Virus record (IMG/VR): IMGVR_UViG_3300027896_000019
Coordinates: 35,820 to 99,819 of that record
DNA length: 64,000 nt
Reading direction: 5' to 3' (one strand)
From: a virus
Lineage: Duplodnaviria; Heunggongvirae; Uroviricota; Caudoviricetes
The notes under the pieces were generated by a model. It was not told where the DNA came from, did not search any database, and saw only the letters and a list, made by a program, of their open reading frames with translations. Below are positions 46,113 through 47,460 of this stretch, one piece after another (position 1 is the stretch's first letter; every line of letters starts with the position of its first letter). A program made the translations under genes and the position numbers.

Positions 46113-46457
46113 ATGTCAGATTACTTCTATGCTCATGAATCTAAAAAATGTTCAAGCTTTATGATTCCAAAAGAACTTTTTACAAACTCACATTATGCCC
46201 AAATGGACGTTCATTCTAAGGTTTTATATGGAATTTTATTAGATATACTCAAATTTGGAAATGACAGTACTTGGATAGATGAATCAAATAGAGTTTATAT
46301 CAATTGTACACGTTTAGAAGTACAAGATATTTTAAAGATTGGAAAAGATAAATGTACGGCTTTATTTCAAGAATTAACATTATATGGATTAATAGAAGAG
46401 GTTAGTCAACGTAGGCAAGCTAAAAGAATTTATTTAAAAAAGTTTGATAAAGCATAA
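46113..46457 (+). CDS. RepA_N-family (Firmicutes plasmid replication initiator N-terminal wHTH) protein
   Basis: AAAAGGGG RBS. FMIPKELFTNSHYAQMDVHSKVLYGILLD...ESNRVYINCTRLEVQDILKIGKDKCTALFQELTLYGLIEEVSQRRQAKRIYLKKF matches the RepA_N pattern. Confidence 0.65.
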   Translation: MSDYFYAHESKKCSSFMIPKELFTNSHYAQMDVHSKVLYGILLDILKFGNDSTWIDESNRVYINCTRLEVQDILKIGKDKCTALFQELTLYGLIEEVSQRRQAKRIYLKKFDKA

Positions 46458-46869
46458 TTCATTACCATAAGCCGTATTTTTTGATTTTAGCCATCAAATA
46501 CATTGTATGAATCATTTTATATTACTACATAAAGCAACAGCTAAAATCACTAATTTTGAACGAATTAAATTATATGACGAAAGGACGGTTAATATGACAC
46601 TCTTGAATACATCTTTGAAATTAATGAACCATCAGAACCAAGAAATCTACGCAAGGCAACAATTTCAACTAGCCATCACACAGGCGAAACAGAAAATAAC
46701 AAGTGGTTTTCTTGTTGTTTTATGTTTTGCAACGCAGGGGTTAGGGGATGCGGAATCCCCTATCTCCGACCAAAGTAATCTTAAAAAATATAGTGTTAAA
46801 TAGATATAAGAGGGGAATTTTGCGAAATGGCTTCAAATAGCATGTTTCCAGACTTGATATGTATCATAC

Positions 46870-47005
46870 TGGTGATACATATATGTACCATATGCATGAT
46901 ACATATATGTTTGTCAAGAGTTTTATAAAAAATAATTTGTCAAGTAGTTTTTATAAATTATTTTTGATACAATCTATATCAATACATGGTACATATATGT
47001 ATCAT
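46870..47005. repeat. Iteron/palindrome cluster: three TACATATATGTA palindromes plus two TTTGTCAAG(A/T)AGTTTTTATAAA direct repeats (candidate plasmid-type origin or operator)
   Basis: Perfect 12-bp palindromes at 46877-46888 and 46990-47001, with an 11/12 copy at 46900-46911. Direct repeats at 46910-46930 and 46937-46958. Confidence 0.55.
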
Positions 47006-47034
47006 AATTCTACATAAGAAAAGAGGTCGATAAC

Positions 47035-47460
47035 ATGAATGACTTAGACGTACAAGAAATGAGAAAAAACGTAGGATTTACACAATTTTATGATGAACAT
47101 CTTGACAAGTTATCGTATGTATATAAAGCTGATTGGTTGGCAGGAGCGATTTTTATGTTTTTAGTAAAACATATGGATAATCAGAATGCTGTAGTATGTA
47201 GTTATAAGGTTTTAATGGATAATTTTGAAAAAAGTAGAATGACGATTTATCGTGCAATTAAAATTCTTGAAGATAATAATTTTGTGAAAATAACGAAAGT
47301 TGGAACTGCAAATGCATTTAGTCTTAATTCTGAATTAGTATGGAGGTCGTGGAATAATAAAAAACAATATGCTAAATTTACTGCAAATGTTATCGTATCT
47401 AAAGATGAACAGATTGCAAAGAAATCTGTTAAGTCTAAAAAAATTACTACACTTGGATAA
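47035..47460 (+). CDS. repL: RepL-family (Firmicute plasmid replication protein) protein
   Basis: AAGAGGT RBS. ...SRMTIYRAIKILEDNNFVKITKVGTANAFSLNSELVWRS resembles the RepL HTH region. Confidence 0.55.
   Translation: MNDLDVQEMRKNVGFTQFYDEHLDKLSYVYKADWLAGAIFMFLVKHMDNQNAVVCSYKVLMDNFEKSRMTIYRAIKILEDNNFVKITKVGTANAFSLNSELVWRSWNNKKQYAKFTANVIVSKDEQIAKKSVKSKKITTLG

Follow-up and report, generated by a model that had tools for sequence, protein, structure and literature searches.

A plasmid-type RepL replication cassette in a large phage of clostridial affinity and its possible use in prophage maintenance

The DNA studied here, called the window, comprises 64,000 nucleotides (positions 35,820 to 99,819 of the IMG/VR virus record IMGVR_UViG_3300027896_000019) of a tailed phage (Caudoviricetes) with a genome of about 100 kb. 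Where its two opposed gene blocks meet lies a cassette with a gene for a replication initiator of the RepL family (repL) and, directly upstream of it, a cluster of palindromes. We regard it as well supported, and very probably correct, that this is a captured replicon of a small RepL plasmid. The plasmid character of the RepL half goes beyond what a first-pass annotation had claimed, since the non-coding region upstream of repL is itself homologous to the control/origin region of small RepL plasmids. As for its use, the most likely reading is that the RepL cassette is the maintenance replicon of an episomal prophage, and we give this about an even chance. The full scenario, in which the complete replication region of a small RepL plasmid, with its binding sites, was taken up by a large clostridial-type phage and today serves it as the origin for prophage maintenance, is offered tentatively and is rather doubtful as a whole.

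The repL gene (47035-47460, + strand) encodes a RepL-family winged-helix initiator of 141 aa and is preceded by the ribosome binding site AAGAGG at 47021-47026. Its match to the Pfam family RepL (PF05732) is marginal (23.0 bits, cut-off 20.3). In addition, tblastn found homologues in 376 plasmid records, most of them annotated as 'replication/maintenance protein RepL', an exhaustive HMMER search gave 849 cluster representatives, and PF05732 is matched by 63 of the 72 closest of these. The family assignment of the first-pass annotation is borne out by these data together, and both open reading frames (ORFs) that it named, 46113-46457 and 47035-47460, are present. The winged-helix assignment of RepL is backed by a predicted model and a fold search. 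RepL is 41-45% identical to the only Rep protein of Bacillaceae plasmids of 3.4-5.7 kb (pBMYdx, pPM4, pSK37064 and PSCG5), and the plasmid pBMYdx of B. mycoides (3,377 bp) encodes RepL and Mob only. Because enterobacterial plasmids of as little as 1.2-1.6 kb carry homologues over 86-89% of the query, a RepL of 141 aa is a plausible full-size initiator. The ORF is full length over the family core, and the ribosome binding site, the promoter and the perfect 19-nt palindrome arms are intact.

The DNA in front of repL resembles plasmid DNA as well. About 290 bp upstream of the gene match pBMYdx, pKKS966, pNCT2_10 and pPM4 in both sequence and layout. A blastn search with the non-coding segment 46458-47034 against 72,556 plasmids returned six records, and in all three that were inspected (pKKS966, pNCT2_10 and pBMYdx) the match lay 50-80 nt or less upstream of repL. 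We aligned 260-620 bp before repL from six elements, and the shared order is a hairpin with a T(C/A)C(C/T)CG box, an AGATATA..GG box, two tandem inverted-repeat units of 24-25 nt with a centre of 5-7 nt, an A+T-rich promoter spacer, a palindrome just past the -10 element, the ribosome binding site and repL. Both the architecture and the sequence of the repeats are conserved with pBMYdx, pKKS966, pNCT2_10, pPM4, pSK37064 and PSCG5, and the DNA upstream of repL in pBMYdx has the same repeated motif, GTGATACATATATGTATCAT, as the window. Judged by this alignment, there is good evidence that the window holds a homologue of a whole plasmid replication/control region rather than a stray gene.

In the window, the region begins with a G+C-rich hairpin (GGGGAT-GCGGA-ATCCCC) followed by the box TCTCCGACC (46744-46771, + strand); in the alignment, they coincide with a hairpin and T(C/A)C(C/T)CG box of Bacillaceae RepL plasmids. 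Local G+C content is 37% at this site vs 30%, the fold of the single-stranded DNA has z = -2.4, and the site is a candidate nick site or origin element. The next box, AGATATAAGAGGGGAA (46802-46817, + strand), is kept as AGATATAGAAAGG(G/A)A in pBMYdx, pPM4, pSK37064 and PSCG5. It is followed by the distal tandem pair of 24-nt units (46857-46910), each with the inverted repeat GTATCA-N6-TGATAC and joined by ATATAT, which are predicted RepL binding sites of iteron or operator type. Downstream of them, a spacer with 82-88% A+T (46911-46968, + strand) is a candidate unwinding region and contains two imperfect copies of TTTGTCAAG(N)AGTTTT(T)ATAAA. These are the two direct repeats of the first-pass annotation; both copies exist, the pattern as written there matches once ungapped, and the second copy (46908-46929) differs from the first by small insertions and deletions. 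Tandem Repeats Finder reports a period of 28 nt for 46905-46966, with 2.4 copies and 76% matches. The extended -10 element of repL, TTTGATACAAT (46964-46974, + strand), was assigned because plasmid repL promoters have their -10 hexamers at the aligned place, and another TGATAC half-site overlaps it; a promoter scan gave only a weaker, overlapping site at 46937-46964. Finally, the proximal palindrome ATGGTACATATATGTATCAT (46986-47005) would cover about nucleotides +4 to +24 of the predicted transcript and is a predicted autorepression operator.

Two exact copies of the 12-nt palindrome TACATATATGTA, at 46876 and 46990, and a third with one mismatch, at 46900, are all that the 64 kb contain. Three scattered matches alone are not significant, because 12 of 100 shuffles reach three. 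The 11-nt half-site ATGATACATAT, allowing up to one mismatch, is found six times within 46857-47005 vs nine times in the other 63.8 kb (Poisson P ~1e-13), and the two 19-nt arms upstream of repL are 100% complementary. The palindromes upstream of repL are not due to chance. The three palindromes described earlier are thus real and clustered, two of them exact and one with a mismatch, but the repeats are confined to the last 180 bp of the 577-bp gap, directly upstream of repL. They belong to repL alone, and the earlier picture of an iteron cluster shared by two initiators had to be given up.

Comparison among elements also links the repeats to the protein. Window RepL, pBMYdx RepL and pPM4 RepL have the identical recognition helix KSRMTIYRAIK, and the half-site is GATAC in the window and pBMYdx and mixed GATAC/GTTAC in pPM4. 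PSCG5 has the helix KSRSTVYRAIK and the half-site GACAC, and a contig of a Ruminococcus metagenome-assembled genome (L024, 48 kb) has CSRQTASTAIK and CTTTAC. In a circular metagenomic contig (L004), where a 41%-identical RepL is the only Rep candidate, the helix is SESTAKRAVK and the half-site GATGACCTGT. Since helix and half-site co-vary across these elements, there is good evidence that RepL binds these repeats. The circular contig (Logan SRR25266743) has 5,079 nt with a terminal overlap of 30 nt, giving an element of 5,049 bp. It also encodes a Phd/PIN toxin-antitoxin pair and a tyrosine-recombinase-like gene, and its repeat set upstream of repL reads ACAGGTCAT-AGC-TGATGACCTGT.

The cassette sits at the meeting point of the rightward replication operon and the leftward lysis/tail genes. 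The RecU-like ORF ends at 45830, and just after it a terminator-like hairpin with a T-run (45836-45859, + strand; a 10-bp stem, then TTTGTATTAT) closes the operon for replication and nucleotide metabolism and forms the left edge. The right edge is the terminator of the leftward lysis/structural genes (47767-47792, - strand). The 1.95-kb block that the two terminators enclose (45860-47800) is plasmid-derived. In G+C content it does not differ from the phage, and no insertion sequence (IS), transposase or recombination scar was found beside it. A nucleotide search with the cassette against phage genomes gave no match, an Rfam search of 45700-47900 gave nothing near threshold, and there is no DnaA-box cluster. 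Counted together, promoter-like sites are no more frequent in the region than in shuffled sequence.

The second replication-type gene of the cassette (46113-46457, + strand) encodes 114 aa that form a stand-alone RepA_N N-terminal domain, a winged-helix domain for DNA binding and oligomerisation. The first-pass annotation had called it a RepA_N initiator-like gene, and its family is clear (PF06970, E 5.3e-18, 65.1 bits, cut-off 30), but only the N-terminal domain is present and the C-terminal domain is absent. Residues 2-99 match the solved N-terminal domains of pSK41/pTZ2162 (4pta, 4pql, 5kbj and 4pt7; E ~1e-10), and the protein stops five residues past the conserved wing motif, which is where the crystallised N-terminal domain ends. 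Full RepA_N homologues have 285-394 aa. The pSK41/pTZ2162 initiators differ from the window protein by a linker of about 80 residues containing the origin and a DnaG-interacting C-terminal domain of about 120 residues, both of which are absent here. No remnant of a C-terminal RepA part was found downstream by tblastn with three full-length homologues, and profile scans of the downstream ORF gave no C-terminal family, including no DUF6017. Rep-box binding and oligomerisation are functions of the N-terminal domain in pSK41 Rep, whose C-terminal domain binds DnaG and is essential (PMC5703833). Hence, by the pSK41 model, the RepA_N protein is not a competent initiator. No repeat array was seen inside or after its gene (46400-46850), although the sequences of its cognate Rep boxes are not predictable, and a nucleotide search with the RepA_N half against plasmids gave no match. 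Most likely, the protein is a truncated remnant or a DNA-binding accessory or regulator, not a second initiator; it may also be the partner of something unrecognised.

Short ORFs with the RepA_N domain only recur on long contigs in our profile search. Two such cases were opened. In one, a transposase insertion had cut the ORF; in the other, from Tn916-like conjugative elements, the DUF6017 part forms an ORF of its own. In these elements (L033-L035), RepA_N ORFs of 116 aa and DUF6017 ORFs of 118 aa recur in 18 contigs, about 150 nt apart, which suggests a naturally split initiator or an origin-containing gap. In the window, the RepA_N gene has a predicted promoter (TTGCAA-17-TAAAAT with TG, 45884-45912, + strand; a consensus match only), from which the leader would be about 190 nt long. 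A counter-oriented promoter-like site (TTGACT-17-TATAAT, 11/12; 46013-46041, - strand) lies inside this leader. Speculatively, an antisense RNA of about 90 nt (from about 46006 down to 45915), with the hairpin CCUGUGU/ACACAGG and a U-run, might be made from it, with the pSK41 antisense RNA called RNAI as an analogue (PMC5703833). The likeness is without statistical support: the putative RNA folds no better than shuffles (z = -1.2), and it has no homologues for covariation.

The surrounding genome is that of a phage with plasmid-like relatives. The G+C content of the window is 29.8%, and the gene order is a rightward block from about 2.7 to 47.5 kb, then leftward genes from 47.8 kb. The rightward block contains numerous small genes without assigned function, DUF932, DUF3846 and GmrSD_N-type genes, and a Xer-like recombinase. 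Its full set for replication and nucleotide metabolism comprises an AAA_24 ATPase, a DnaB-like helicase (29083-30525), a primase (30549-31559), RecJ, the alpha subunit of DNA polymerase III (Pol III alpha), a class II-type ribonucleotide reductase, a dUTPase, an RNA ligase and a RecU-like resolvase. As claimed earlier, the phage thus encodes its own replisome, with Pol III alpha, helicase, primase and RecJ all present. Among the leftward genes are those of a holin, of an endolysin of the Amidase_2/PG_binding_1 type and of large proteins of tail or fibre-like character. The window thus has phage genes of all three kinds, structural, lysis and replication, and the RepL cassette provides a plasmid-type replication initiator beside them.

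Pol III alpha is 55% identical to that of the C. difficile phages LIBA6276 and LIBA2945, and 33-55% identical to genes on non-mobilizable plasmids of 93-203 kb from C. difficile, C. botulinum, C. tetani and C. perfringens. The groups of LIBA6276 and LIBA2945 are reported to be big 'plasmidial' siphophages whose prophages are extrachromosomal circles (PMC5786514). The host of the window phage is a low-GC Gram-positive bacterium. A crAss-like identity, suggested by size, G+C content and strand layout, was rejected, as the best polymerase matches are phages and plasmids of clostridia/bacilli; the endolysin type, Amidase_2 plus PG_binding_1, also speaks against it. The phage segment is present with 100% identity in two further public assemblies. 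A metagenome scan gave relatives at 31% identity only, and IMG/VR scans found no relative.

The gene at 21247-22113 (+ strand) encodes a Xer-like tyrosine recombinase of 288 aa, a candidate multimer resolvase or integrase. It matches Pfam Phage_integrase with 115 bits and NCBIfam XerC with 193 bits, below the cut-off of 335, and is 27% identical to xerC of phage LIBA6276. The divergent 308-aa protein encoded downstream (22148-23074, + strand) has only weak tyrosine-recombinase similarity (phrog_5830 1.5e-10, XerC 18 bits) and no Pfam match. Of the XerC/D-like pair proposed earlier, the first member is thus clearly Xer-like and the second is not clearly so; in BLASTP, the two are not paralogues, and neither has meaningful similarity to the pair on the circular contig L004.

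In accordance with these features, we propose the following working of the cassette. RepL dimers would bind the GTATCA-N6-TGATAC units. At the proximal sites, RepL would shut off its own promoter and so set its own level; such autorepression is expected because the extended -10 element overlaps a half-site and the palindrome 46986-47005 falls within the early transcript, at about +4 to +24. Bound to the distal array, which has the A+T-rich stretch and the hairpin 46744-46771 next to it, RepL would open or nick the DNA, and the distal units, the A+T stretch and the hairpin/box together are the likely initiation region. The opened or nicked DNA would then be replicated by the host replisome independently of the lytic programme of the phage, allowing the circularised phage genome to replicate as an episome in lysogens, with the Xer-like recombinase at 21247-22113 resolving dimers. 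As a twist, a RepL origin of the nicking type might also launch rolling-circle concatemers for packaging, so that one module would serve both lifestyles. Such functions have parallels in the literature. Small helix-turn-helix RepL proteins of the pSN2 family, which are poorly studied, belong to presumed rolling-circle plasmids (PMC5703833). Rep proteins of pHW126-like plasmids, distant relatives of RepL, nick DNA, recognise iteron-like repeats and act as repressors of their own promoter, and for pIGMS31 intermediates of both rolling-circle and theta replication are known (bioRxiv 10.1101/2022.12.05.519187). Moreover, phage-plasmids account for up to half the phages or plasmids in Bacillus and Clostridia (review, PMC11652158), and for crAssphage a phage-plasmid lifestyle was argued from repL genes that lie at either end of the gene block on the replication strand (PMC10983915).

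The intact plasmid-type RepL replicon, the plasmidial polymerase lineage and the presence of a Xer-like recombinase agree with the phage-plasmid reading of the first-pass annotation, and the find fits a plasmid-like prophage lifestyle. This reading is partly supported, and a number of points weigh against it. Genes alone do not establish an episomal lifestyle. The search for partition genes suggested earlier gave none (ParA, ParM, TubZ or ParB) in the window, which covers all but about 36 kb of the phage, nor an addiction system; LIBA6276 encodes ParM-like, Doc and PemI proteins, and its ParM-like and Doc proteins have no homologue in the window. The RepA_N protein fails a defining test for a RepA_N initiator. 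Because only the DNA-binding domain is present here, a RepA_N Pfam match in a phage is insufficient as a sign of a working initiator. Streptococcal phage and prophage records (Javan and _rum series) also list proteins with a RepA_N domain under replication. Homologues of RepL and RepA_N were not found in LIBA6276 and LIBA2945, which live as plasmids, so the lineage does not need the cassette for a plasmid lifestyle. To our knowledge, no RepL replicon carries 100 kb. RepL plasmids have 1-6 kb, are multicopy and are presumed to replicate by a rolling-circle or mixed mode (PMC5703833; bioRxiv 10.1101/2022.12.05.519187), and active rolling-circle replicons in large cointegrates are described as problematic and often deleted (PMC5703833). 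The searchable literature holds no mapped origin for this RepL plasmid subgroup, and we infer that the repeats are an origin rather than an operator only. Furthermore, public data hold the cassette region in three identical copies only, and selection on it is hence not measurable.

RepL genes in other large DNAs also bear on this question. In Vibrio phage 1.233.A (4989-7876), a 133-aa RepL-like 'replication protein' stands in a lambdoid module with NinB and NinG, and the gene is directly followed by those of a 510-aa protein and a primase/helicase, an arrangement like that of a lytic initiator. In the Ruminococcus contig mentioned above, a RepL cassette with its own repeat array lies beside YchF-type GTPase and tRNA methyltransferase genes; these housekeeping-type neighbours make it appear chromosome-integrated, and RepL cassettes can thus sit passively in larger DNA. 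The Arsenophonus nasoniae plasmid paNv_CH10 (36.9 kb) has four short RepL paralogues (115-139 aa) in a row at 4308-9787, downstream of another replication initiation gene, and the plasmid has ParM. Next to a main initiator, short RepL proteins may thus serve accessory functions.

In a different explanation, RepL, possibly with the RepA_N domain, is the origin-recognition protein of the phage's own lytic replication and has no part in lysogenic maintenance. RepL would then hand the DNA, opened or nicked at the palindrome array, to the phage's DnaB-like helicase, primase and Pol III alpha, and if RepL nicks like its pHW126-type relatives, rolling-circle concatemers for packaging could result. 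We consider this unlikely, yet deserving of weight: no other origin-binding initiator was recognised in the replication module, the RepL and RepA_N proteins match N-terminal parts of PHROG families named 'replication initiation protein' or 'DnaD-like helicase loader', and the nicking by pHW126-like Rep, the mixed intermediates of pIGMS31, the gene order in Vibrio phage 1.233.A and the streptococcal annotations all agree with it. However, the cassette lies 15 kb from the helicase and primase, behind a terminator, with a predicted autoregulated promoter of its own, and its cis region is plasmid-type down to nucleotide similarity. RepL homologues are nearly absent from phages, with 5 of 50,697 phage records matched by tblastn (E up to 0.01) and none found by pattern scans of IMG/VR. 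The 72 aligned RepL relatives proved too diverse to be used for such a scan. In addition, the nearest relatives lack the cassette, which is thus not part of the conserved replication core.

The same absence from relatives would agree with a passenger, that is, a small RepL plasmid and a piece of a RepA_N replicon that entered a permissive spot between the convergent operons by recombination and have no role in phage replication, a recent gain that is either neutral or decaying. Accessory 'moron' insertions typically lie between two terminators, the RepA_N gene is truncated, as short RepA_N ORFs elsewhere are by IS insertion or gene splitting, and the Ruminococcus cassette seems to be such an integrated copy. 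The RepL half, however, shows no decay in ORF, ribosome binding site, promoter or perfect palindromes, the cassette has the G+C content of the phage and clean flanks, and an active multicopy replicon would not be neutral in a genome of 100 kb, all of which makes a passenger rather improbable in our judgement. It is very improbable that the cassette is a competition device. In that case the RepA_N domain, able to bind DNA but not to replicate it, and RepL, with the DNA specificity of pBMYdx-type plasmids, would act in trans on resident RepA_N elements and RepL plasmids and, to the advantage of the phage, titrate their origins or block them by incompatibility or exclusion. The RepA_N protein does stop at the domain boundary, five residues past the wing motif, and an N-terminal domain that alone binds Rep boxes and oligomerises would be a plausible dominant-negative inhibitor; the helix and half-sites of RepL are also identical to those of natural plasmids. 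But we found neither direct evidence nor a precedent, the matching plasmids come from Bacillaceae and Staphylococcus whereas relatives of the phage infect clostridia, and the full cis region that RepL has of its own argues for action in cis. A maintenance replicon of an episomal prophage hence stays the most likely reading.

Several further features lie in or near the cassette. A palindrome with arms of 15+15 nt, ATTTTTGTCAAAAAT/ATTGTTGACAAAAAT (47460-47507, + strand), directly follows the repL stop codon, overlaps the -35 element of a strong promoter (TTGACA-17-TATTAT with TG), and is an uncertain member of the cassette. The roughly 290 nt after this promoter hold no good ORF and end at the bidirectional hairpin 47767-47792; the stretch folds better than 200 of 200 shuffles (z = -3.0) with no Rfam match, and a candidate non-coding RNA may lie within 47460-47800. 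The heptamer TTGTCAA/TTGACAA occurs five times within 575 bp (46911-47485) and 26 times in the rest of the window (Poisson P ~5e-6). The promoter spacer of repL has two of the five copies, the gene itself one and the palindrome that follows it the other two, and they form a second motif class in the cassette, without assigned binding protein. An ORF at 46594-46803 (+ strand; 69 aa from an ATG with ribosome binding site, or 98 aa if the start is 46507) is of doubtful coding status; profile scans gave no family match, and the gene callers did not call it on the identical contigs L002 and L003.

Other observations concern distant parts of the window. The first 1.5 kb or so (1-1500), upstream of the long rightward operon, are very A+T-rich and without convincing ORFs. 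Four copies of GTTTTAACC(A/T)TGT(A/T)A(A/C)ATA are dispersed there (807-825, 898-912, 1093-1110 and 1203-1221) along with many TATCTAT motifs, and this region could have a regulatory function, act like a centromere or be an origin of the phage itself. Inside the early block, 10987-16824 holds a cluster of DUF7222, DUF3846, DUF932, GmrSD_N (DUF262) and DUF2786/DUF7168 genes, types that are typical of the leading/anti-restriction regions of conjugative elements. The replication block also encodes a DUF2828/DUF7788 protein, a von Willebrand factor A-domain protein and an SPFH/Band 7 protein (24341-25858 and 31930-33704).

How phage-plasmids arise has not yet been observed (review, PMC11652158). 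The origin of their plasmid functions is rarely traceable, and here it can be approached with a compact and directly testable cassette. This case could show whether a small-plasmid replicon of 1 kb maintains a phage genome of 100 kb. Moreover, it offers predicted binding sites for the poorly studied RepL family, backed by natural co-variation of helix and half-site.

Among known systems, the small RepL plasmids of Bacillales are the closest in the cassette itself. They include pBMYdx, pKKS966 (S. hyicus, 4,957 bp), pNCT2_10 (P. megaterium) and pPM4 (B. badius), within the wider pSN2/RepL family PF05732, and they share 72-84% nucleotide similarity with the window in the repeat region. In the plasmids, RepL is the sole replicon of a molecule of 1-6 kb, whereas here it lies inside a phage of about 100 kb. 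The window RepL also lacks the charged N-terminal extension of about 40 residues of the Bacillaceae proteins, its promoter spacer has a duplication of about 26 nt relative to the plasmid homologues, and the conserved G+C-rich region of the plasmids (about -300 to -550) is not recognisable in the window. The pHW126-like plasmids (pHW126, pIGRK and pIGMS31) resemble the window in a winged-helix Rep and iteron-like sites near an autoregulated promoter, and their Rep binding sites double as incompatibility determinants (bioRxiv 10.1101/2022.12.05.519187). They differ in their hosts, Gammaproteobacteria, and in that nicking was shown for pHW126 Rep and RepM.

For the phage as a whole, the nearest systems are the 'plasmidial' siphophages of C. 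difficile (phiCD5763/phiCD2955 groups, e.g. LIBA6276) and the clostridial phage-plasmids of 93-203 kb, with which it has in common a large genome, Pol III alpha, RecJ, helicase, primase, ribonucleotide reductase, dUTPase and a Xer-like recombinase. Similarity is low outside the replication core, and the plasmidial C. difficile phages have a ParM-like gene and no RepL/RepA_N, whereas the window phage has RepL and a RepA_N domain and no ParM homologue. crAssphage (Carjivirus communis) is alike in its size of about 97 kb, its opposed replication/structural blocks and the place of its plasmid-type repL genes, of which it has two, at the ends of the replication block (PMC10983915). It differs in host phylum and phage lineage, its RepL is not detected by tblastn with the window RepL, and no conserved plasmid cis region has been reported for it. 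Phage P1 differs by its ParAB and toxin-antitoxin systems, neither of which was found in the window, and its RepL was rejected as a homologue, as the five phage records with a match at E up to 0.01 do not include P1. In concept, P1 resembles what is proposed for the window phage, the combination of a separate plasmid-maintenance replicon with a lytic replication system and a dimer-resolving recombinase. The find thus belongs to a known kind, phages that carry plasmid replication modules, and it adds to them a case in which the donor plasmid family is traceable in both the protein and its DNA sites, which bears on the origin of phage-plasmids.

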